Counted from the first letter of the stretch, positions 1,161-19,538 are shown. The stretch is 24,473 nucleotides of DNA from a virus (UHGV-0454263), one strand, 5' to 3'. Numbers and translations: made by a program. Notes: generated from the letters alone by a model not told the origin.

Positions 1161-3377
1161 TTACTGCTGTGATTGTTGCTGGGTTGATTTTTGCAGGATG
1201 CTGCTGATGTCCATTCGTTGTGCATGGCCCTGTGCCTGACTTTTCAGGACAAGCTCTGCATCAGCACGGGCGTTATCTCCTTGCTGTTGCTGGAACTGTC
1301 CGAGCAGTTTCAGAGCCTCGCGGATATCAGATTTCTGCTGGCTATCGGCAGATGCGAGGATTTTCACAACATTTGCCGCAGCAACCTGAGCATCCGTCTG
1401 TGCCTGGAATGCTTTAACCTGAATAGCTGCCTGTTCGTTCTGCGCTTTCTGCAATTCAGCCTGACCAGCAAGAAGTTGACCTTGCGCTGCAACCATAGCC
1501 GGATCTGGCTGACTGGCCTGTTGTTGTTTCGCCTGTTCAACCATCTGCTGTTCTTCAGGCGTTCTCGGCTTGATAACGCCAGACAGAAGCAACTGATTGC
1601 GGTTGTATTCTTTAAGGTCGTCCATCCCTTCGCCGTCCATATTGTCGAGAATCATCGACGATACAAGGTCGTGCTTCTGCGTTCCTGGTGGGATAAGTGC
1701 CAGCATGGAAAGTAACGACTTAACCGTTGCATCACGACGAGTAGCGAACGACTGACCGACATCGACAGTCACTTCATAGTTGCCCTGCGAAAGGTCATTA
1801 AGCGCGATAACCTGCCCTGTCTGACGGTCAACCACTTCACCAGTCATCAGCGCCACGTCATCGCTGCCGTCCTCATTAACGATACGCATCGGCGTATCAC
1901 TGCCATAGACCTCACGCGCCATAGAAAGCCACACAACGCCAGCGCGACGCATGGATTTAGCCATGTTGTCCATGTAGATATAGGACTGCGTGTCCATCCG
2001 GTTAAAGATGCTATCAACGGTATCGGTGGCGACGTTGCTCGGCATGTTCTCAAGCTGCGACGCACCTGTAATTTGCTGAATAGCAGTTCCGGTGTACTGC
2101 AATAGCCCGGCAAGAGCAGGAGGCATTTGTGTTGTAGGTGTATAACTGCTGACCTGAGCCTGCGCAGTAATATCTCCGTTTTTGTTTTTCAGACTGACCA
2201 TCGGCAGGAACGCCGGGCGCTTTTTGTTGCGCTCCGCCCAATGAGTGGCGAGAGGACCAGGAATCATGTCAACATCAACTACAGGAATACCATCACCGCC
2301 AGCCTGAGTGGCGTTATCTGCAATCATGGAAACCATCAGGTTCTCAAGACGCTGTGCATCCATCGCTTTTGCTGCGTGGCCTTCGATTCGCTCCTGATTA
2401 TCAACAAATGAACGACGCCCATATACCGGGATGAGAGGAATATGTTCGCCCGGAATACGCTTCGGTTCTTCCAGCCATTCAGCGCCAGACAGAAGACCGC
2501 AATAAACTCGGCGTTTCTTCACTGTCCGCTCACCAATCAGTTCGAATGCGCCATCGGTCAGCTCGTCGACAATATCTTTGATTTGATCTTCATCATAGAT
2601 TGCCGTTTCTCCGCTAACAGGGTTACGCCATGCTGTGAGCTTCACCTTCTCTACGCGAACTTCGTAGTAGCGTCCAACATAGATGGCGTCAGGCGTTGAC
2701 CAGTCATACTGAGTACCAGTGTCATCACGAGAAAGGCTTGCCGCGATGGAATCAGGGTATTCAGCCTCGAACGCTTTAGGCGTCATGGAGAACATTTCCA
2801 TAGCCCACATAGCATCAGAGCGGTCATATTGCTTGCTGTCCTGATCGAAGAAAACGCATGTCGCTGGGTCGTAAACAGGAAGAAGGCTGATGCGTCGCTG
2901 CTCGTTACTTGGGTCCATTTCATCTTCGTAATCGGCACACATGCGGAAACAACCGAATCCGCCCGTTACAGCATCATCAAATGCGTTATCACACGCTTCG
3001 CCACCGGATGTTTCCTGATAGTCAGCGCGGAATTTGCCGTTCATCTTTTCGGCTAACGCTTCCGATGCCTTGTCATCCTTCGGCCTGAATTTAACGCTGA
3101 TGCGATTCTGTCGATACTCGCCAATGATGCGATCACATTCACGGGCAATCTTATTCAGTTCAAAGCGCGGGTAATGCTCAAACCTGCCTTCATCAAATGA
3201 GTAACCAGCGTTTGTGCTGCCTTCCCACTGTGCGCCGGACACCCGGACGAAACGTTGAGCCTCAATAATCTGCTCTCGCATATCCTGCGTTGCTGACCAG
3301 GCATTATCAAAGTTGCACAGCACCTTGCGATGCCAGTCAGTCATCTTTCTATCATCAGCCATCATCCAACTCCGCAA
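1161..3377 (-). CDS. Portal protein (P22 gp1-like)
   Basis: 738-aa ORF immediately downstream of large terminase with 16-nt overlap; size and Q-rich C-terminal tail typical of P22-like portals. Confidence 0.85.
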   Translation of the reverse strand: MRSWMMADDRKMTDWHRKVLCNFDNAWSATQDMREQIIEAQRFVRVSGAQWEGSTNAGYSFDEGRFEHYPRFELNKIARECDRIIGEYRQNRISVKFRPKDDKASEALAEKMNGKFRADYQETSGGEACDNAFDDAVTGGFGCFRMCADYEDEMDPSNEQRRISLLPVYDPATCVFFDQDSKQYDRSDAMWAMEMFSMTPKAFEAEYPDSIAASLSRDDTGTQYDWSTPDAIYVGRYYEVRVEKVKLTAWRNPVSGETAIYDEDQIKDIVDELTDGAFELIGERTVKKRRVYCGLLSGAEWLEEPKRIPGEHIPLIPVYGRRSFVDNQERIEGHAAKAMDAQRLENLMVSMIADNATQAGGDGIPVVDVDMIPGPLATHWAERNKKRPAFLPMVSLKNKNGDITAQAQVSSYTPTTQMPPALAGLLQYTGTAIQQITGASQLENMPSNVATDTVDSIFNRMDTQSYIYMDNMAKSMRRAGVVWLSMAREVYGSDTPMRIVNEDGSDDVALMTGEVVDRQTGQVIALNDLSQGNYEVTVDVGQSFATRRDATVKSLLSMLALIPPGTQKHDLVSSMILDNMDGEGMDDLKEYNRNQLLLSGVIKPRTPEEQQMVEQAKQQQASQPDPAMVAAQGQLLAGQAELQKAQNEQAAIQVKAFQAQTDAQVAAANVVKILASADSQQKSDIREALKLLGQFQQQQGDNARADAELVLKSQAQGHAQRMDISSILQKSTQQQSQQ

Positions 3378-4858
3378 GGTATGTTGTAGCTTGAGTAATC
3401 AATCTCTTTAGGATCTTTGATGTCTCGCATCTGTATTGCAAAACGCCTCATCATGTAGCCATAGCGAACAGCAGAAAGGATGTCGTCATTTAGCTTGACG
3501 ATCTTCCCGTTCTCATCGCGGTGATACAGGCGAAACTCTTCAAAGAATGGCTCGCAGGTGTTAAATACCTTGAAACGACCGTCGAGCATCATGTCGCGTA
3601 TCTCTGCTATCCCGGGTTCGACCGCATTACCTCCATCAGGCCATGTTGCATGATCTGGCAACATGTCGAACCCAGCGTCGGCGTATTGTTCCTTGAGCTG
3701 AGCGCCGCCTCCCTTTTCGTGCTGATGCCCGTCATGAGGCCAAGCCGTAGGGGTGTTTTTGCTCCATGCTTTAACAGCACTCCATGCCTCTGTCGCCTTC
3801 TTCTGTTTGGCCTTCCAGACGCGAGAAAGATAAATCACGTCCTCGTCTTTATCCCACCAAAGCTGGATATGTGCCTGTGGGTGATCCCATCCGAAGTCCA
3901 TTGCATTGATGACGTAGAAGTGATCAGGACACTCGAACGGCTGACACTTAATCGTCTCTTCCGGTATCTGGAAGATTCGACCGCTACCCATCGTAGGAAT
4001 ACCGCGAGCACGCGCCTCTCTCTCATGCTCAGGATAAGATGCGATGATTTGCTCTTTCTGCTCGTCGGTGTAGTGCTCAGCGTCATAGATGGTCATGTTG
4101 ACCACTTTCTGCGACTTGCTGGGATTCTTCAGGAACTTGGTAACAACGTCAGACATCCCCATCAGCGGGGTAAACGTCAGAATTGAGAATTGCCCGTATT
4201 TGTTGGTACGGGTAAGCCCTTCGCCATAAATGCTGTATGGTGGCTCTTCGTCAAACCACACGCCGTGGATTGTGTCACCCTGCCAGCGAGCGCGTCCTTG
4301 CGAGTATGGTTTGAAGTAGCAGATTGAAATGCCATCTTCAACGCCATCAGCCGTGTGATGCTTAACCAGAAGATGATCAACAAGGTTCGGAAAGAAAGGA
4401 GACTTCTTCCAGCTAATGATGTCTTCTTTCGGTATGGAACCGTAGCCTGGCTCGTCATTCTCTTCAATACGACCGCACAGGATGCGTTGAGTCGTTTTGG
4501 TTACAGTCTCGTTTGTCTCGCCGCCAATCCAGAAGACAACAGGCTCATAGAAACGCTTACCTTTCCACTCACCGCCATATTTACCATCAGCAGGATAGCC
4601 TTTTGTGCCCGGATAACGCCCGGTAAGGTGAAACGCGACTTCAGCAGCACCAGTAAATGACTTACCAAGCTGGTTACCAGCCATAAAACAGCGCTCTGGA
4701 TAGTCATGCCCGGCGTCGATGAACTCACGCTGTTTGCTGTATGGCGTAAATTCATATAGCAGGTGTGTGTTCCGGTAGTTCTCTTCTTCTTCGAGTAGCT
4801 CGAGCAACTCGATTTGCTCTTCGTCGCTCAGGTTATCAAGAATCGCGTCCAGTTCCAC
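3362..4858 (-). CDS. Terminase large subunit (P22 gp2-like)
   Basis: 498-aa ORF; size and position between small terminase and portal; overlaps the small terminase stop. Confidence 0.85.
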
Positions 4859-8794: not shown

Positions 8795-9418
8795 CTAACG
8801 TGTGACCGCATTCAAGATATTGTCTGCGATTGACTCTTCCTTGTGGCATTGCACCACCAGAGCGTCATACAGCGGCTTAACAGTGCGTGACCAGGTGGGT
8901 TGAGTAAGGTTTGGGATTAGCATCGTTACAGCGCGATATGCGGCGCTTGCTGGCATCCTTGAATAGCCGACACCTTTGCATCTTCCGCACTCTTTCTCAA
9001 CAACTCTCCCCCACTGCTCTGTTTTTGCTATATCAACCGCGCGGCCTGTACCGTGGCAATCTCTGCATCTTGCCCCCGGCGTCGCGGCACTACGGCAATA
9101 ATCCGCATAAGCGAATGTTGCGAGCACTTGCAGTACCTTTGCCTTAGTATTTCCTTCAAGCTTTGCCACACCACGGTATTTCCCCGATACCTTGTGTGCA
9201 AATTGCATCAGATAGTTGATAGCCTTTTGTTTGTCGTTCTGGCTGAGTTCATGCTTACCGCAGAATGCAGCCATTCCGAATCCGGCTTGTGATTGCGCCA
9301 TCCCCATAGCAGCCATCACATCAGTACCGGAAAGAGAGTCAGAAGCCGTAGCCCGTGGTGAGTCGCTCATCATCGGGCTTTTTGGCGAATGAAATTTAGC
9401 TACGCTTTCGAGTCTCAT
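8795..9418 (-). CDS. Q: Late antiterminator Q (lambda-type)
   Basis: 207 aa, [48 protein letters not shown]... with Cys-rich zinc-binding region; near-identical to lambda Q. Confidence 0.95.
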
Positions 9419-10080
9419 GCGCCTTCTCCCTGTACCTGAATCAATGTGAGGTTTCCGCAGAACACTGCGCCGGTATCGATATACATCTGGTTGGCAAACT
9501 TGAGTGGTTTCACTGCTGGCGTATGACCAAAGATGAACGTGTCCGCGCCTTTGATTTCTTTCACGATCCCGTCTTGTGAGTTGCTGATTCGTTCGCGGTT
9601 CCAGATTACCTGCTGATGATCAACTGGCTTTCCAAACTCGTATTCGTCACAAGGATAATCGGCGTGGCAGATGACATATTTTTTATCTTTACTCACCAGT
9701 TCGATGATTAACGGAAGTTCATCTGCTTTATGGGCAAGAGCTTTAGCCAGAATTTCTTTGTCGTAATCGAGATTAAAGAACCAGCCACCGCCATTAAGCA
9801 GCCAGTGATTGACGTTTCCACGCTCTGATAAGCCATCAATCATCATGTGCTCATGGTTTCCACGTACAGCTCTGAACCAGGGGAATGTGATTAATTCCAG
9901 GCATTCAACGTTCTCTGCACCACGATCAACCAAATCGCCAACCGAGATAAGCAGGTCTTTTTTGGTGTCGAATCCAATCGTATCCAGTTTGTTCATCAGG
10001 TTCGTGTAGCATCCGTGCAGGTCGCCAGCTACCCAAATATTTCGGTATTTGCTGCCATCAATTCTTTCGTAGATATTCAT
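9415..10080 (-). CDS. Ser/Thr protein phosphatase (lambda orf221/NinI-type)
   Basis: 221 aa with metallophosphatase motifs GDLHG, GDLVDRG, GNHE; ATGA overlap with Q. Confidence 0.9.
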
Positions 10081-11030: not shown

Positions 11031-11565
11031 GCCGCCCTCCTGACGCCCTCCTGACGCCCTGCCCGATCGCCATCAATGCCGCTTTGGATACGGTAGTAAA
11101 CATCCGTCGAGGACTGATGAACGGTCGCCAAATCAGCAGCATTGAGCCTTTGCTGTTTCCCTTCTTCTCCAGCCCTGTCGATGGTTCGATAAAATTAATC
11201 CGTCCATCAGTGATGATGCGAACTTCGTCAACACTCTCCAGAGCCTTGCTGAGCCATCCGACAGACATATCCTCTGGCACAAGCATCACTACCGTCTGTC
11301 GTTGTTGTATGCACTGCTCAGCGGCTTTTTCCACCCACGGCCTGATATTGCTGTACGGTGGGTTATTCCAGATTGCACCGTGGCTTACCCACTCAGAATT
11401 GAGCGCGTCGTCGGCCTCAGTTAGCCAGTGAGCACACAGAGCATTTTTGTCGCTCGCTGCCGAATCCAGCCAGAATCCAAACTCAATATCCAGTGCATCA
11501 AAAAGCCAAAGCGGCGTTTGCCAGCAGTCCTTGTCGTGTGCTGGCGTATTTGATTTGATAGTCAT
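10951..11565 (-). CDS. Phage N6-adenine DNA methyltransferase (Dam family) with apparently frameshifted C-terminal extension
   Basis: [26 protein letters not shown]... with NPPY catalytic motif; ATG overlaps NinB stop (ATGA at 11565..11562). The 3' end runs 80 nt into ninE in another frame after an 11-bp tandem duplication at 11034..11055. Confidence 0.7.
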
Positions 11566-12008
11566 GCAGCCTTCCCTTTTCGTTGTGACCATTCATACTC
11601 TCGCCGGGAGTCATCACTCCATCGCACGTTGCGCTCTGAGCCGAACCAGAACATGATTTCGATAAGCTCAGTCATGCTGGCCTTTCGCATTTTGCTGGTA
11701 CGCACGCCAAGCATGACAACGCCACCATCGATACCAGGCACACTTCGTTGCTCCAGTTTTTTGGTCTTAAGCCACAGGGCAGTGAACAGGTCTTTCCAGT
11801 CTTCCGGCGCCAGCCGTTGACCATGCCATAGCACCTGACGCGAAACATCGTTCAGCATCGGCCACATACGGTCATTCTGCGCTTTGCTGCGTTTGGGTTC
11901 TCTAACGTGGACTTCATGAGGTGACTTGTCGTCGATGGGAAGTGAGAGTATTGCGTCTATGGCGTTATTTCTGATTGCTTCGTTGCGAAGCATGTATATT
12001 TGCTTCAT
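11562..12008 (-). CDS. ninB: NinB (Orf) recombination mediator
   Basis: 148 aa; conserved ...SRQVLWHGQRL... and C-terminal ...RNVRWSDDSRREYEW... resemble lambda NinB. Confidence 0.8.
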   Translation of the reverse strand: MKQIYMLRNEAIRNNAIDAILSLPIDDKSPHEVHVREPKRSKAQNDRMWPMLNDVSRQVLWHGQRLAPEDWKDLFTALWLKTKKLEQRSVPGIDGGVVMLGVRTSKMRKASMTELIEIMFWFGSERNVRWSDDSRREYEWSQRKGKAA

Positions 12009-12015
12009 CGTTACC

Positions 12016-12222
12016 TCAACTCACAAAACGCCACGCCACTTTTGCTACGACAACAGGCATAACACCGATAATCACCCACAGGAAAATGCTACCGAAAAGC
12101 ACACCCACCAGGTCTTTACCTTCGCCTACCAACCGGACAAAACTGCTGGCAACAACAATGAACGTCGCCACCATCCACATAGCACCGAGAATCCTCAATG
12201 CAGAGAAAATTAACTCAGCCAC
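12016..12222 (-). CDS. Small hydrophobic protein with two predicted transmembrane helices
   Basis: 68-aa ORF MAELIFSALRILGAMWMVATFIVVASSFVRLVGEGKDLVGVLFGSIFLWVIIGVMPVVVAKVAWRFVS; two hydrophobic stretches separated by a short charged loop. Confidence 0.4.
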   Translation of the reverse strand: MAELIFSALRILGAMWMVATFIVVASSFVRLVGEGKDLVGVLFGSIFLWVIIGVMPVVVAKVAWRFVS

Positions 12223-12242
12223 GATTTACCCTCCCCCAAATA

Positions 12243-12267
12243 AAAAGGCCTGCGATTACCAGCAGGC
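12243..12267. terminator. Bidirectional intrinsic-terminator-like hairpin
   Basis: AAAAAGGCCTGC-gattacca-GCAGGCCTTTATCTTTTTTT: GC-rich stem flanked by an A-run upstream and T-run downstream, so it reads as a terminator on both strands; sits directly after the HNH gene. Confidence 0.5.
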
Positions 12268-12269
12268 CT

Positions 12270-12881
12270 TTATCTTTTTTTAACACGCTTTCGAGTCCTT
12301 TTAGATTTTTCCTTAAGATATTCCGCAAGTTTATCCTCATCATTATTAAATTGAGATAAAAGCTCATGCTCGCAATTAAGTGCTTTACTCGCATAAGTTC
12401 CATATAGTTTCTTTCTTGCTAGTGCTGCTATGAATGCTGCATCTTCTTTGCTATCGAAATACCCTAACGATATTGTCTTATTTTTATAACCAACATAAGA
12501 CTTCCACCTGCCAGTTGTCTTATCCCAAGACACTCCAATCGCACCGGATGTGTTTAACCTATTCCCTACAATGTTTCTTGCATTCTGCTCCTCTGTTGCC
12601 AGTCTTAGATTTGAAATCCTATTGTCAAGTCTGTTCCCATTTACATGATCAATAAACTTAGGAGGCCATTTTTTGTATACATAGAACCAAGCAAGTCTAT
12701 GCGCATAATACAAAACATTATTTATGCTAATGCATATATAACCACCACTAACACCTCCAGCAATACTACCTTTTACTCTTACTACTGAATTTGTTTTTAG
12801 CCATTTAAATATTCCTGTTTCTGAGTCATATGATAATGTTGACAGAAGCTCATCGTGATCAATTAGTTTTTTTATTCGCAT
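12270..12881 (-). CDS. HNH homing endonuclease with AP2-type DNA-binding domain
   Basis: 203 aa; HNH motif ...AHRLAWFYVYKKWPPKFIDHVNGNRLDNRISNLRLATEEQNARN... followed by AP2-like ...GVSWDKTTGRWKSYVGYKNKTISLGYFDSKEDAAFIAALARKKLYG; markedly AT-rich relative to flanks. Confidence 0.8.
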   Translation of the reverse strand: MRIKKLIDHDELLSTLSYDSETGIFKWLKTNSVVRVKGSIAGGVSGGYICISINNVLYYAHRLAWFYVYKKWPPKFIDHVNGNRLDNRISNLRLATEEQNARNIVGNRLNTSGAIGVSWDKTTGRWKSYVGYKNKTISLGYFDSKEDAAFIAALARKKLYGTYASKALNCEHELLSQFNNDEDKLAEYLKEKSKRTRKRVKKR

Positions 12882-12959
12882 AAAGAATATACTTAATAAT
12901 ATATACAGTAAGAACCATTAGTAACGATAACCCTGCTATCAGCTCAGTGATGTAGATGG

Positions 12960-13229
12960 TCATTGCTTCATCTCCCTTTCCATTTCATCAATGTCAACGT
13001 CATCAGGAAGATGGGAGCAATACGCCGCTATACCATGATGATTTATCTCATACCCTTTGAACGTTACCATCTGGCGCGTAATCTCAACTTCGTTCAGGAA
13101 TCCGTCATCGCATAACTGCCTGGCTATTTTCGATTTGGTCTGGATTATTGGTAGTGCCTGTTCTTTCAAAGCGCATGATATTTGTGCATCCCATGCCTTT
13201 TCGAGAATGGCTAATTGTTTTTTATTCAT
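12960..13229 (-). CDS. Hypothetical protein
   Basis: 89-aa ORF; its ATG overlaps the helicase stop (TGATG); no motif recognised. Confidence 0.5.
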   Translation of the reverse strand: MNKKQLAILEKAWDAQISCALKEQALPIIQTKSKIARQLCDDGFLNEVEITRQMVTFKGYEINHHGIAAYCSHLPDDVDIDEMEREMKQ

Positions 13230-14665
13230 CAGAATCCTCCTTTCTTCTTGGACTGCGGTTCCTCGCGTTCACGTCGGCGCATTTCAGCAGACTGTTGGTC
13301 TGTGTCATAAATAGCGCCATTTGCCTGAATGCAATACACCGTGCCGGTATTGCCATGACGATTGAGGCGAAGGATTAGTTCGGTTTCACCAGGTGGAACA
13401 CTGTCATCAAAAGCACCTTCACGATGGATCCCCACCCAATAATCGCAATCCTGTTCAATCTGCCCTGTATCTCGTGAGTCACTTGGTAATGGGCGTTTAT
13501 TGGTTCGGCTTTCCAATGCGCGGTTAAGCTGTGTCAGAAGCACAACAACGCAATCAAGCTCTTTGGCAAGGTTCTTCAGTCCTTTGGTGATCATGCCGTA
13601 AGCAAGGTCGTTGCGATCGGCCTTCTCAGCAGTCATTAGTGTCAGGTAATCGACCAGAATCATGCCAACACATCCTTTTTCTCGCTTGATTCGACGGCTT
13701 TCGCTGACGATTTGAGCCAGAGATAATCCCGGCGTGTCGTCGATGTAAAGCAGGTCGATTTCACTCAAGCGATTGGCTGTTTCGATCGCCCTGTTGAAGT
13801 CACCATCGTAATCACCCTGATAGCCGTCATCAGCGTCATTTGTCGCCGGAAGGTAAAAAATATTCGGGTTAATACCTGACTTCTGCCCTACCAGTTTTTC
13901 CAGTATCTGATCACCTGGCATTTCAAGGCTGAACATCAGAGCGGGCTTTTTCTCATGCACTGCGCAATTGATTGCCATCTGGCTGTATAGCGTCGTTTTC
14001 CCCATCTTAGGGCGAGCACCAATGACAAACAGAGAGCCTTTCACCAGACCTTTCGGTGACAGCATCCTGTCCAGCGATGGGATCCCTGTGCTCATTCCCC
14101 GTTGTTCTCCTGATGGGTCAAATCGCTTCTCAAGGTCGCTAACCCAGTCTTCCATGACCTCACCAAATGAACGAAGGCCGCGACGCGATCCGGTTTTTGC
14201 ATGGTCTGTCAGTTGCGTGAAAATCGACTGAATAGCTTCGTACTTCTGCGTCGCAGTCATTCCGTTGCGGGAATAGAGCAATTCCGTCGCTTCAGTCATG
14301 CGGTTGATGGCGTAGCGTTCCATTGCGGTTTCACGAACCTGCATTGCATAGGCAACGATGTTTGCTGCGCTTGGCGTGTTCTTTGCGATCTCAGCGATAT
14401 AAGCAAAACCGCCAACAGACACCGTTAACGATTTACGCTCCAGTTCATCGAAAAGCGTCAGGCCATCTACTGGCTTTTGCTCCCGGTGCATTCTGGTTAT
14501 CTCTTCGAAAAGGATTTTGTGTGGTCGGCTGTAAAATGAATCGGGCTTCAGCATCGCCAGAACTTTCTGGACGCGCTCACTGCTGTCATCATCCAGAAGC
14601 AATCCACCAATCACCGCCTGCTCTGCCTCGATGCTATGGGGCGGCGCATAAAAATTATCGGTCAT
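13229..14665 (-). CDS. Replicative DNA helicase, DnaB family (P22 gp12-like)
   Basis: Walker A GARPKMGKTT, DnaB-like N-terminal domain (SIEAEQAVIGGLLLD); start assigned to ATG at 14665 preceded by GAGGGTG. Confidence 0.9.
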   Translation of the reverse strand: MTDNFYAPPHSIEAEQAVIGGLLLDDDSSERVQKVLAMLKPDSFYSRPHKILFEEITRMHREQKPVDGLTLFDELERKSLTVSVGGFAYIAEIAKNTPSAANIVAYAMQVRETAMERYAINRMTEATELLYSRNGMTATQKYEAIQSIFTQLTDHAKTGSRRGLRSFGEVMEDWVSDLEKRFDPSGEQRGMSTGIPSLDRMLSPKGLVKGSLFVIGARPKMGKTTLYSQMAINCAVHEKKPALMFSLEMPGDQILEKLVGQKSGINPNIFYLPATNDADDGYQGDYDGDFNRAIETANRLSEIDLLYIDDTPGLSLAQIVSESRRIKREKGCVGMILVDYLTLMTAEKADRNDLAYGMITKGLKNLAKELDCVVVLLTQLNRALESRTNKRPLPSDSRDTGQIEQDCDYWVGIHREGAFDDSVPPGETELILRLNRHGNTGTVYCIQANGAIYDTDQQSAEMRRREREEPQSKKKGGF

Positions 14666-15554
14666 CGTGTTCACCCTCACGAACTTTCAGGTAGGTATTG
14701 TCGTTAAGCAGGAAATCAAATCCCTTTTTGTGCCAGACGGTTCCGCGTTGATGGTTTGGGCGTTCTTCGAACATCCATCGGCAATTTTCGCCTACGTAGC
14801 TCAAATAATTTCTCCAGTCCTGCATCGTGAACCCATGCCCGTCAAGCTGGCGGGTTATCACTCCGGCTTTGCGCCAGAACGTTCGGATCTGGTTTTTACG
14901 CTTGTCATTCAGTGCGCGGATTCTTGGCGCTTCAGGAAGGATTTCGTGGTAAGCATCGACAACATCCTGACAGCTGACGGAAGGTTTTTTCTTGTCAGAC
15001 TTTTTGTCTGCTGTGGCACTCTCTAATACGTCAGTATTAGAGATAATATTATTATATTCTTTATCTGTGGTAATTTGCTGGTAATCTGCTGGTACAGTAT
15101 TGCTTGCAGGCATTGGTATTGCTGGCTTTGAGGTGGTAATTTGCTGGTAATCTGCTGGTACAAAATTTGACTGATAATCGTCATATTTCTCTACCGAGAA
15201 AACTGAGAATTTACCGTGTGAAACCCAGTCAATCATGCCGAGTTTTTTGAACTTTCTAAGCAGGTACTGAACGCGATCTGGTTTGAGTCCTGTTTCAAAC
15301 GCCAGAGAGTTTCTACCGCCAAGTAGCTTACCTCTGCCTACCAGAATTTCTCCTGCGTCAGTCATTACATACTCAGGCGTATGCTTTGCTTTGAGGATTA
15401 AGTGAACCCACAGATGCGCAGCTTCTGCGTCCTTGTAAAACGGCACATCCATAATTTTACGGTGCAGCAAGGCATACCCCTTACCGCTGCTTTGATGCGG
15501 TTGTTGTAGCCTTCTGGCCTCTCTGGCTTCGGCTAGATTAGATATGTTACTCAT
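14655..15554 (-). CDS. Replication initiation protein (lambda O / P22 gp18 functional analogue)
   Basis: 299 aa; internal peptide repeat [10 protein letters not shown] x2 encoded by DNA iterons; position between cII and helicase. Confidence 0.75.
15035..15165. repeat. Origin of replication: iterons plus AT-rich tract inside the initiator gene
   Basis: 29-bp unit TGGTAATTTGCTGGTAATCTGCTGGTACA at 15068..15096 and 15134..15162, built from 11-bp sub-repeats TGGTAATNTGC; further GGTATTGCTGG copies between; adjacent AT-rich tract AGATAATATTATTATATTCTTTATC. Confidence 0.6.
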
Positions 15555-15725: not shown

Positions 15726-16022
15726 TCAGAATTGCATATCAATTTGCTTAAAATCCTCGGTGGCAGCCGGGGATTTTTTCTTTGTGATTTCATCAAGCGC
15801 ATACTTAAAAGCCCTGCTAATCGGACTGATGTCTGATGCCATTCCGAAAGCACACAAGACCGAAGCAATAAATCTCCAGTCCGTTCTGCTTATCTTCGAT
15901 TCATGACAGCCAATCATCTTTGCCAGACCGCGCTGGGTAAGCGTTGACAGGTTGATAAGTAAATCTGTTTCAGCGCGATCAACGTCACGCTGTGATAGTT
16001 TGCTGTAACTTGTTTGTTCCAT
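15726..16022 (-). CDS. cII: CII-like transcriptional activator
   Basis: 98 aa; HTH and C-terminus ...[20 protein letters not shown] resemble lambda CII (...TNKKRPAATERSEQIQMEF). Confidence 0.8.
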
Positions 16023-16507: not shown

Positions 16508-17212
16508 ATGGAAAACAAAGATATTCGCAAATCGAATCTGGCGTTTTTGCTAGACGAGCATAAAAAAATCGCGGGTAACACTAATGCAAGCTTTGCCGAT
16601 AAGCTTGGAGTTAGCCCTTCTCAACTCACGCAAGTCTCCGGTGAAAAAAGCACTCGAAACATAGGGGATAAACTAGCAAGAAAATTCGAAGCCGCACTTG
16701 GGTTACCTAATGGGTGGCTTGATTTGGTACATGATGTAACACCAATTGCATCATGCTCAGATTCTTTAACTTTTGTCGGTCAGGTAAGAAAAGGGTTAGT
16801 GCGCGTGGTTGGTGAGGCAATTCTTGGTGTTGATGGTGCCATCGAGATGACCGAAGAGCGCGATGGGTGGCTCAAGATTTATAGCGATGATCCAGATGCC
16901 TTTGGTCTTCGTGTGAAAGGAGACAGCATGTGGCCCAGAATAAAATCAGGAGAATATGTACTCATTGAGCCTAACACCAAAGTATTCCCGGGGGATGAGG
17001 TGTTTGTCAGAACTGTTGAAGGACACAACATGATCAAAGTTCTTGGCTATGACAGAGACGGAGAATACCAATTTACAAGCATCAACCAAGATCATAGGCC
17101 AATAACGTTGCCTTATCATCAAGTAGCAAAGGTGGAGTATGTAGCTGGTATTCTGAAGCAATCTCGCCATCTGGATGACATCGAGGCAAGGGAGTGGCTG
17201 AAAAGTTCGTGA
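16508..17212 (+). CDS. cI: CI repressor (HTH N-terminal domain, S24 LexA-like autocleavage domain)
   Basis: 234 aa; N-terminal HTH; C-terminal S24 peptidase motif GDSMWPRIKSGEYVLIEP with Ser-Lys dyad. Confidence 0.9.
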   Translation: MENKDIRKSNLAFLLDEHKKIAGNTNASFADKLGVSPSQLTQVSGEKSTRNIGDKLARKFEAALGLPNGWLDLVHDVTPIASCSDSLTFVGQVRKGLVRVVGEAILGVDGAIEMTEERDGWLKIYSDDPDAFGLRVKGDSMWPRIKSGEYVLIEPNTKVFPGDEVFVRTVEGHNMIKVLGYDRDGEYQFTSINQDHRPITLPYHQVAKVEYVAGILKQSRHLDDIEAREWLKSS

Positions 17213-17631: not shown

Positions 17632-18072
17632 ATGTGGCTACAAGCTCATATCATCCCCTTGGATGAGGATTGTATACCTATACAAGGGCTAAAGTTTGAA
17701 CTGAAATGGAAACCAGATCAGGATTCAGAACCTGATGACCCGATTTCTTACCCTAAAATAAATATTATTGCTTTCTATCATAACAAGAGGGTTTTCGCGG
17801 TAGATACCTATCACTTTGACAAACACACGAATAGTTACAAGTTCGATCATCCGAAGTACCAAGATATCATTTACGGTGCTCACTACCATGTATACTATGA
17901 AGAAGCTGGATACTATAGTGATAGAATAGCGTTTCCAATCGAAGATGACATAAACCCAGATGACCTGGTAGGGTATTGGAATTACTTCTGTAAACATCTG
18001 AACATAACTTACTCTGGGAGAATACCTTTACCACTTGAAGATGAGTCGGGGCAAATGGGGTTTGGAATATGA
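17632..18072 (+). CDS. Uncharacterised protein A in the rexA-equivalent slot (possibly extends upstream through the repeats to TTG 17303)
   Basis: 146-aa ORF, His/Tyr/Asp-rich, AT-rich codon usage; the 57-bp repeats upstream are open in the same reading frame; stop overlaps the next gene's ATG (ATGA). Confidence 0.55.
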   Translation: MWLQAHIIPLDEDCIPIQGLKFELKWKPDQDSEPDDPISYPKINIIAFYHNKRVFAVDTYHFDKHTNSYKFDHPKYQDIIYGAHYHVYYEEAGYYSDRIAFPIEDDINPDDLVGYWNYFCKHLNITYSGRIPLPLEDESGQMGFGI

Positions 18073-18821
18073 TGTGCTCAACAGTGATCTCACAACTAGG
18101 TTTCGAATGCCATCCAATAGGCAAGACCTTGAGAATTATCAGTCCATTCACTTACTGTGATGATGGAGAGCATGTCGGTGCTTTTATCCGTGAAGTCAAT
18201 GGTAGGTATTTAGTTAGTGATAGATGCGATGCCTTAATGAATATGGAGGCAAGAGGGATCTCGCTTACCAAAAAACGACTTGATGAGATACGACAATTAC
18301 TGCTTAAAGAAGGCGCAGAGCTCAATGATCGAGGAGAAATCATTGCTTGGGCAACAGAAAAGGATGTCGGTGCGATTACATCGAACATAATTAGAGCTGG
18401 TATACTCGCATCAACTTTGTCGTTAGACTGGTATCAGCCAGTTCAAGCTGAAAAGTTTGAAAGTATGGTTATTGATTATCTATATCACACAGAGCTTAGA
18501 GACGCACTTTCTCTTCGTGAAAACGTATATGGCTTGAGTGGACATCAAATTACCGTCCCTGTAACAATAAAAACCGACATACCTAAATACGTTTTTACAT
18601 CAAGCGTGAAACACGGAGGAAGCTGGAATAGTGCTTACTCATTGCTTGGGAAACTAATTGATCTTAAAGCATCAAGTGAGGAGTATAACAACAGATTTGT
18701 TGTTATAGACAGCGAAGCAATTGGTGACCAAATGCAACAACTCTCCTTACTCTTCCATGAATCAAGCCAAGTTCTACCATTCTCCAAAAGAGAGACTTGG
18801 GTTAAGAGACTTGCAGCATAA
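18069..18821 (+). CDS. Uncharacterised protein B in the rexB-equivalent slot
   Basis: 250-aa ORF translationally coupled to protein A; no Walker motif or transmembrane segment recognised; AT-rich. Confidence 0.65.
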   Translation: MMCSTVISQLGFECHPIGKTLRIISPFTYCDDGEHVGAFIREVNGRYLVSDRCDALMNMEARGISLTKKRLDEIRQLLLKEGAELNDRGEIIAWATEKDVGAITSNIIRAGILASTLSLDWYQPVQAEKFESMVIDYLYHTELRDALSLRENVYGLSGHQITVPVTIKTDIPKYVFTSSVKHGGSWNSAYSLLGKLIDLKASSEEYNNRFVVIDSEAIGDQMQQLSLLFHESSQVLPFSKRETWVKRLAA

Positions 18822-19167: not shown

Positions 19168-19265
19168 GATCACCCAACCACATAAGCTGTGGGATGCAAT
19201 GCCGAAGCAACCGTCTCAGGAGGGGCTTCGAGATTGCATCGCCAAAGTTTATTCGGGAGGAATCT

Positions 19266-19538
19266 ATGTCCAGAAAAACAGAATTTAAAGGAACCGCAGC
19301 TTCTCGCCGTAGAGCTCGTCGTGCAAATCTGCAAAGTCAGGAGGCGATCAGCTCCGACAAGCTACACAGGCCAACCCCTTCACGAGTGGTCTTGCAATGC
19401 AAGCGCAAACCAGCAATGAGAGCAGAAGTGATAACTCTGACAACGTTGACCAGAAAATATGAAGGTTCAACTTGTCTTCCAAACGTAGCTCTTTACGCAG
19501 CAGGATACCGGAAATCAAAACAACTGACGGCGAGATGA
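19266..19538 (+). CDS. N: N-like antiterminator with arginine-rich motif
   Basis: ATG at 19266 with GGGAGG 5 nt upstream; MSRKTEFKGTAASRRRARRANLQSQ... resembles the lambda N boxB-binding ARM (QTRRRERRAEKQAQ); position after pL/nutL. Confidence 0.7.
   Translation: MSRKTEFKGTAASRRRARRANLQSQEAISSDKLHRPTPSRVVLQCKRKPAMRAEVITLTTLTRKYEGSTCLPNVALYAAGYRKSKQLTAR

Follow-up and report, generated by a model that had tools for sequence, protein, structure and literature searches.

A probable free-standing HNH-AP2 homing endonuclease gene inserted at ninA/tR2 in a lambdoid Escherichia coli prophage

The window, by which we mean the whole 24,473-nucleotide stretch of DNA analysed here, carries the early-right operon of a lambdoid prophage on its minus strand. 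The CII gene (15726-16022) comes first in the operon, and ninB is followed, in order, by a Dam methylase gene, ninF, ninG, a phosphoesterase gene and the Q gene. Between CII and ninB, the locus is composed of the following features, given in gene order with the evidence in brackets.

14655-15554, minus strand: O-like gene (ORF calls, Pfam, PHROGs)
13229-14680, minus strand: DnaB-type helicase gene, directly before the 89-aa ORF
12960-13229, minus strand: upstream neighbour, an 89-aa ORF, phrog_2239 (ORF call, Pfam, PHROGs)
12932-12963, minus strand: left half of the target, ninA codons 1-11, ATGACCATCTACATCACTGAGCTGATAGCAGG
12859-12963, minus strand: ninA' fusion micro-ORF, 34 aa, MTIYITELIAGLSLLMVLTVYIIKYILYANKKTN (sequence; annotated in relatives)
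12267-12931, minus strand: inserted cassette of 665 bp, made up of a 50-nt leader, the HNH-AP2 ORF and 3 trailing bases
12882-12931, minus strand: 50-nt cassette leader (sequence, promoter scan)
12270-12881, minus strand: predicted HNH-AP2 endonuclease ORF, 203 aa (Pfam, PHROGs, AlphaFold, Foldseek)
12576-12710, minus strand: HNH_3 nuclease domain, residues 58-102 (Pfam PF13392)
12399-12542, minus strand: AP2-type DNA-binding domain, residues 114-161 (Pfam PF00847, model, Foldseek)
12234-12271, minus strand: lambdoid tR2 intrinsic terminator (hairpin 12244-12271 plus T-tract), the right half of the target
12215-12266, minus strand: displaced 3' part of ninA (..LLVIAGLFIWGRVNRG*), whose stop overlaps the GTG start of the next ORF
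12016-12222, minus strand: downstream neighbour, a hydrophobic 68-aa ORF, phrog_1165 (ORF call, PHROGs)
11562-12008, minus strand: ninB/orf recombination mediator gene (Pfam NinB, E 1.7e-48)

The original prediction had described an AT-rich HNH-AP2 homing endonuclease at 12243-12950, lying between a helicase-associated ORF and ninB. The placement at the joint of the replication and nin modules was correct, although the 68-aa ORF (phrog_1165) precedes ninB, and the coordinates included the hairpin and extended 19 bases beyond the true left boundary at 12931. The description needed one addition, in that the insert interrupts a small known gene, ninA. The strongly AT-rich island was evident in the composition of the insert, with a GC fraction of 0.340 over 665 bp compared with 47-51% GC in the flanks, and in the GC3 of the HNH-AP2 ORF, which was 0.255 compared with 0.44-0.57 for the neighbouring genes; equally AT-rich 665-bp windows make up only 2% across the whole 24,473 nucleotides.

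Profile searches placed an HNH_3 domain (PF13392) at residues 58-102 of the 203-aa protein, covering the full profile (1-46; E 8.1e-16, 57.8 bits, cutoff 24.8), and an AP2 domain (PF00847) at residues 114-161, the latter scoring just below the Pfam cutoff (E 1e-7, 32.6 bits, cutoff 33.3). A cluster representative that is 99% identical to the protein (P0001) has a precomputed PF00847 match, and in PHROGs the protein matched phrog_99, annotated as 'HNH endonuclease', with an E of 3e-72. In a sequence search of the PDB, the AP2 domain of WRI1 and I-HmuI, an HNH homing endonuclease, came out best. With an alignment of 52 homologues as input, AlphaFold gave a model (mean pLDDT 84.5) that has three strands (117-120, 125-132, and 135-142) and a helix (145-163) in the AP2 region. 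The best Foldseek matches of this model in the PDB were the TEM1 AP2 domain (7et5; rmsd 1.2 Å over 48 columns) and I-HmuI (1u3e_M; rmsd 3.9 Å over 106 columns, E 0.017), each with a probability of 1.00 at modest E values of 0.012-0.017. D78, H79, and N100, the putative catalytic and metal-binding residues, align on D74, H75, and N96 of chain 1u3e_M, which we take to be the metal-binding and general-base residues of 1U3E. Across the 52 homologues, which span 39-99% identity, D78, H79, N87, N91, and N103 were invariant, and N100 was kept in at least 90%. By profile, residues and fold, the protein is thus assigned to the HNH_3/I-HmuI-like HNH endonucleases, with a putative nuclease activity. The predicted combination of an HNH motif with an AP2-type domain was borne out, for HNH by Pfam and phrog_99 and for both parts by the fold matches, and neither sequence nor fold searches led to a non-nuclease family, the outcome that had been named as evidence against the prediction; both returned HNH nucleases and AP2 domains. 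The order seen here, HNH followed by AP2, is that of a described family of homing endonuclease genes (PMC10448857).

The boundaries were defined by the comparison with insert-free prophages that the original prediction had proposed. The resumption of homology was first located by alignment with VT2-Sakai, HK022, and PA28. A synthetic empty-site query, made by joining 200 bases from each side of the insert, gave a single 400/400-base match of 98.0-98.8% identity in insert-free E. coli prophages (e.g., strains E66 and SD134209), compared with two pieces over 1065 bp in insert-bearing ones, and this yielded base-exact boundaries together with an intact target. No allele with 100% identity to the window flanks occurred among the complete E. 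coli genome matches listed. In gene sense, the empty allele reads ...ATGACCATCTACATCACTGAGCTAATAACAGG|CCTGCTGGTAATCGCAGGCCTTTTTATTTGG... and the window allele ...CTGATAGCAGG|[665 bp]|CCTGCTGG...; the trinucleotide AGG is repeated at both cassette ends, which leaves the boundary ambiguous by 3 nt. The insertion point follows codon 11 of ninA and precedes the CCTGC of the tR2 stem, within the 5' arm of that stem, and the terminal AGG of the cassette restores the arm, with hairpin folding energies of -18.0 kcal/mol in the window and -16.3 in the empty allele. Because the insertion lies within the 5' arm of tR2 and the arm is rebuilt by AGG, the terminator belongs to the phage backbone and not to the insert. 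This qualifies the earlier description of an island ending in a bidirectional terminator hairpin. In a terminator scan, the hairpin at 12244-12271 did fit the intrinsic-terminator pattern on both strands, but it is the resident tR2, present in insert-free phages, and its bidirectional look arises because the T-run is the complement of the lysine-codon A-run that ends the HNH ORF. Phages Lahn1, Nil2, and Nil3 have this stretch labelled as 'tR2 terminator', and the P22 annotation places a terminator inside ninA.

The interrupted gene, ninA, is an ORF of 24-32 codons with tR2 inside it. The P22 annotation gives it as MTIYITELVTGLLVIAGLFIWGRGKT, and it is mentioned for lambda (PMC4824070, PMC8022706), although the lambda record NC_001416 leaves it unannotated. 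The micro-ORF across tR2 was also considered as a new gene, and this was rejected because it is the known ninA of the P22 annotation and the lambda literature. The ninA loci compared were 12215-12266 plus 12932-12963 of the window, IMG/VR loci L007-L126 and L132-L249, P22 (L261:2674-2754), and lambda (L259:1068-1148). Conservation of the left half-site, ninA codons 1-11, extends to lambda, P22, VT2-Sakai, and 115 empty IMG/VR alleles. Behind the same ninA 5' half we also found an unrelated second hairpin allele of the terminator (GGGCTATTTACACAGTAGCCC), and the cassette never occurred in that allele.

Several minor observations concern this micro-gene. The ninA frame was open in 114/114 translated empty alleles, with mainly synonymous or conservative variation, and the alternative hairpin allele also leaves the ORF open and hydrophobic (MTIYITELITGAIYTVALFYWIKNEG..). 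The first 69 bases of the HNH cassette are open in the ninA frame only. It is curious that a terminator is retained within a translated micro-gene in three sequence forms. An imperfect short repeat surrounds the insert (12267-12274 and 12932-12939), reading ATAGCAGG on the left and ATAA-AGG on the right, with ATAACAGG in the empty site; it may be a trace of the first insertion or due to chance.

The distribution of the cassette was patchy. The site is empty in both lambda and P22, in agreement with the statement that neither phage has such a gene at this position. Among 384 phage records matching the stretch, 19 contained the cassette, all of them HK022 or E. coli prophage-derived phages, mostly Stx-converting, and the others matched just 44 bases of tR2. 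The cassette was present in 126 of 5426 complete E. coli genomes, at 138 places, counts in which clonal O157:H7 lineages confound the multiple copies, and a 101-base empty-site query matched at 3018 places in 2059 of these genomes. Among 120 IMG/VR loci with a tR2 31-mer, five carried the cassette. Copies were 98-100% identical. A scan of one genome per prokaryotic species gave no close copies outside E. coli, returning the E. coli copy and two weak AP2-only matches. The original prediction had pointed to conserved presence at this position, as a core gene of the replication module, as the observation that would speak against it; we found instead that about 95% of the lambdoid phages and prophages with the site lack the cassette.

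Despite changing neighbours, the insertion site was constant. In 30 IMG/VR cassette loci, retrieved with an internal 26-mer of the gene, every readable junction was located at ninA/tR2 (26/26 on the left and 27/27 on the right), and the same junctions were read in the copies of HK022, PA28, SH2026Stx1, phi330, and 1717. At least six unrelated sequences stood upstream of the ninA ATG, including the ends of ren, of three different DnaB-type helicases and of the 89-aa ORF, and at least seven different sequences followed tR2 among the cassette copies. A query consisting of the left half-site followed by any base except C found no other cargo at the site in IMG/VR, returning only this cassette, the unrelated hairpin allele, and single-base tR2 variants. 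Five bases to the left of the junction (-5), a G was present in every insert-bearing allele examined and in 1/115 empty alleles, the remaining 114/115 having an A; further to the left, the bases differed between insert-bearing alleles. This linked G would be consistent with a very short co-converted flank, or with a single origin.

Some individual loci at this site deserve mention. One IMG/VR locus, L039, was the sole empty allele of the 115 with the cassette-linked G at -5, with both flanks of the window type; it could represent precise loss of the cassette, an ancestral recipient allele, or a resistant target variant. In Stx2 phage 1717 (L004 3203-5644) and in IMG/VR locus L257, an ISEc8 element has entered the cassette 8 bases from its left end, with GGTTATCG as the target duplication, and separates the HNH gene from ninA' and the upstream operon. 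Two further cassette copies, L250 and L251, had single-base changes in the tR2 stem (GCAGGTC and GTAGGCC); their downstream context diverges within the T-tract, and right-hand homology is down to about 30 bases.

Sequence variation among the copies was limited. Nine haplotypes were found among 27 copies; the length was 665 bp in 26/27, and the 203-aa ORF was intact in 26/27, with an A7-to-A8 frameshift in one. Two copies in E. coli genomes are annotated as split or truncated. The 17 segregating sites comprised 9 synonymous, 8 non-synonymous, and 0 at catalytic residues, and a rough dN/dS of ~0.3 indicates that the HNH-AP2 ORF is under purifying selection. The 50-base leader had no segregating sites among 26 copies.

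Taken as sequence evidence, the exact boundaries, the intact empty site, the use of one site, the patchiness, and the near-identical copies in unrelated contexts make up the signature of a homing gene, in support of the selfish mobile insertion originally proposed. We therefore read the feature as a free-standing HNH-AP2 homing endonuclease gene in a lambdoid E. coli prophage, with a probability of roughly 75%, where cleavage and homing are the parts deduced from sequence and analogy. In the literature searched, we found no experimental work on this gene or its target.

The layout of the cassette offers clues to its expression. The promoter scan found no promoter-like site on the gene strand within the cassette, and no Shine-Dalgarno-like sequence precedes the HNH ATG in the 50-nt leader. 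Of the 34 codons of the ninA' fusion ORF, ninA supplies the first 11 and the cassette the remainder. The ATG of the fusion ORF overlaps the stop of the preceding 89-aa ORF, and its last 23 nt are shared with the start of the HNH ORF. This fusion ORF is annotated as HK022_56 and H3H24_gp28, and the same peptide was found at HNH-bearing loci. The absence of an own promoter, together with an orientation within the pR operon upstream of tR2, points to early lytic expression and silence in the lysogen, and the lack of a ribosome-binding site, with the HNH ATG lying inside a ninA' ORF that is itself coupled to the upstream gene, suggests weak, coupled translation.

Under the homing reading, lytic growth or induction would bring transcription of the cassette from pR, whereas it would stay silent in the lysogen. 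The AP2 domain and the N-terminal sheet would then let the protein bind an uninterrupted ninA/tR2 sequence in another lambdoid phage, either co-infecting or co-resident, and its HNH centre would nick or cut the bound DNA, by analogy with I-HmuI. The cut genome, on being repaired from the cassette-bearing one, would acquire the cassette along with a few flanking bases. Because the insertion splits the target, the carrier genome would be protected, and because the insertion rebuilds the terminator hairpin, the cost to the host phage would be small. The HNH stop codon lies 3 bases ahead of the tR2 core stem, and near-complete repression of tR2 is reported where it lies a few bases after a translated gene (PMC4824070); from this stop-codon spacing, one may speculate that translation of the HNH gene also affects tR2 read-through. 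Matches to the ninA/tR2 sequence occur in ~38% of the complete E. coli genomes, often in multiple prophages of the same cell. We tentatively suggest, as an idea we consider possible yet rather less likely than its opposite, that ninA/tR2 itself is the natural target, and that cutting there, on induction or co-infection, drives the mosaic joint between the replication and nin modules and serves as a weapon between co-resident prophages.

One argument against homing is the occupancy of a very common target, which at ~4-5% is low for an efficient homing element. Also on this side are the empty allele L039, with window-type flanks that include the G at -5, the AP2 score just short of the Pfam cutoff, and the modest Foldseek E values, albeit at a probability of 1.00. 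The low occupancy favours a different account, in which the cassette is passive cargo that entered once by illegitimate recombination and was subsequently carried by homologous exchange at the module joint, with the nuclease inactive on the site now or always. The neighbours of empty sites, upstream as well as downstream, form the same mosaic, so that ordinary module shuffling could have moved a static cassette, and the linked G at -5 would fit a single origin. The imperfect repeat around the insert and the foreign composition of 34% GC also speak for this account. However, an ORF that has stayed intact under purifying selection, with conserved catalytic residues and the architecture of site-specific homing enzymes, is not readily expected of inert cargo. 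Moreover, the new left contexts require exchange within 27-32 bases of homology, and some right ones within about 30, and exchange within such short homology is more easily explained by break-stimulated repair. On balance, we regard passive carriage as unlikely, although it is the most serious competitor of the homing reading.

Retention of an intact gene could likewise reflect domestication, either as a weapon against competing lambdoid genomes or as an AP2-type DNA-binding tuner of tR2 read-through into nin and Q. The gene lies at a regulatory node ahead of Q, tR2 has a GC-rich stem and AP2 domains are reported to prefer GC-rich DNA (PMC10448857), and the spacing of the HNH stop codon to the core stem corresponds to the arrangement in which tR2 is reportedly repressed after a translated gene (PMC4824070). 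Nevertheless, the great majority of related phages manage without the gene, and invariant nuclease residues would be needless for a pure regulator, which makes domestication improbable; the weapon role shares its biochemistry with homing and is hard to tell apart from it. An HNH protein in a tailed phage might also suggest a packaging-associated nuclease that acts with terminase, of the HK97 gp74 type, and HK022, a carrier of the same gene, is a relative of HK97. Yet the gene belongs to the early operon, about 7 kb from the 498-aa (3362-4858) and 738-aa (1161-3377) ORFs, putative packaging genes judging by their position; its HNH_3 domain is joined to AP2, unlike the terminase-linked type; and it is absent from most relatives, which package normally. 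Its location between the replication and nin genes and the wrong domain type led us to discard the terminase-associated assignment, to which we give almost no credence. Three other candidates were likewise not supported. A moron does not fit a gene without a promoter-like site on its strand and with a terminator that is the backbone tR2 of empty alleles; an intron-borne endonuclease does not fit an ORF that fills 612/665 bases, with no Rfam family near its gathering score in 11900-13400; and an intein does not fit an HNH frame that differs from the ninA frame.

The cassette itself is already known, both as HK022 gene 57 and as annotated Stx-phage copies, and the HNH-AP2 family has been described. 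The HK022 gene 57 product (AUM59825.1) comes from the same 665-bp cassette at the same ninA/tR2 site, with 99.0% DNA identity and three residues that differ; 'putative endonuclease' NP_597900.1 in the phage 1717 record is the HK022 gene 57 product. The Stx phages PA28, 1717, SH2026Stx1, WGPS4, and WGPS6 carry the same cassette annotated as 'HNH endonuclease' or 'homing endonuclease', and such annotations also extend across RefSeq E. coli genomes. Compared with the window, the HK022 and Stx-phage copies have 98.2-99.0% DNA identity, and the 203-aa protein differs by 3-6 residues. Only the neighbours differ: the 89-aa ORF precedes the cassette here and in Stx2a phage F578, whereas the helicase gene does so directly in HK022 and ren in PA28.

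Among characterised enzymes, I-HmuI of Bacillus phage SPO1 (PDB 1U3E) resembles the window protein in its N-terminal sheet, HNH centre, and D-H...N residues, at ~20% sequence identity. I-HmuI reportedly makes a strand-specific nick near its insertion site, and by analogy such a nick is a likely mode of action of the window protein. The gene of I-HmuI lies within a group I intron, and the enzyme has a C-terminal helix-turn-helix domain, whereas the window protein is the product of a free-standing gene and has an AP2 domain followed by a basic helical tail. The seg and mob genes of T4-like phages are likewise intron-less insertions between conserved genes, patchy among relatives, and spread by break repair with co-conversion of the flanks. 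The window gene shares with them the lack of an intron, the position between conserved genes, and the patchiness; the free-standing T4 enzymes are mostly GIY-YIG proteins or HNH proteins without AP2, and their phages are virulent. HNH-AP2 homing genes are mentioned in phages, cyanobacteria, and protists (Magnani et al. 2004, as cited in PMC10448857). In Vibrio phage ICP1, the 'IPA-HNH' genes have an N-terminal HNH and a C-terminal AP2 domain, are free-standing, and lie at boundaries of genetic exchange (PMC10448857), all features in common with the window gene. The ICP1 proteins have diverged beyond what the Pfam HNH_3 profile can detect (PMC10448857), whereas the window protein is a clear HNH_3 member, and the window gene differs further in residing in temperate lambdoid phages and in having as its target a terminator within a micro-gene.

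As a discovery, the locus carries little weight, given that the cassette became public with the HK022 phage genome and routinely bears the label of an HNH or homing endonuclease. The sole addition made here is the base-exact map of the target, the lambda tR2 inside ninA. This sequence is among the most conserved short sequences of lambdoid phages and is also the joint at which replication and nin modules are exchanged. A lambda recipient with an HK022 donor would offer a simple system for asking whether a homing nuclease promotes module exchange in temperate phages, Stx phages included. If the suggestion about the natural target were true, the element would be an active driver of the replication/nin mosaic joint in lambdoid phages, including Stx phages.

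Two observations elsewhere in the window may be added. Flanked by the cI-like repressor gene (16508-17212) and by the N gene (19194-19538), an AT-rich stretch (32-41% GC) at 17632-18821 on the plus strand occupies the position of lambda rexAB. Its two ORFs, of 146 and 250 aa, match PDC-M24A (E 3.8e-4) and PDC-M24B (E 4.4e-10), a candidate defence pair in PADLOC, as well as Pfam DUF6978 (weakly) and DUF1828. On the minus strand, ninG and the Q antiterminator gene are separated by a calcineurin-like phosphoesterase gene (9415-10080; 221 aa; Pfam Metallophos, E 3.9e-16), whose product looks like the usual lambdoid orf221-type phosphatase.
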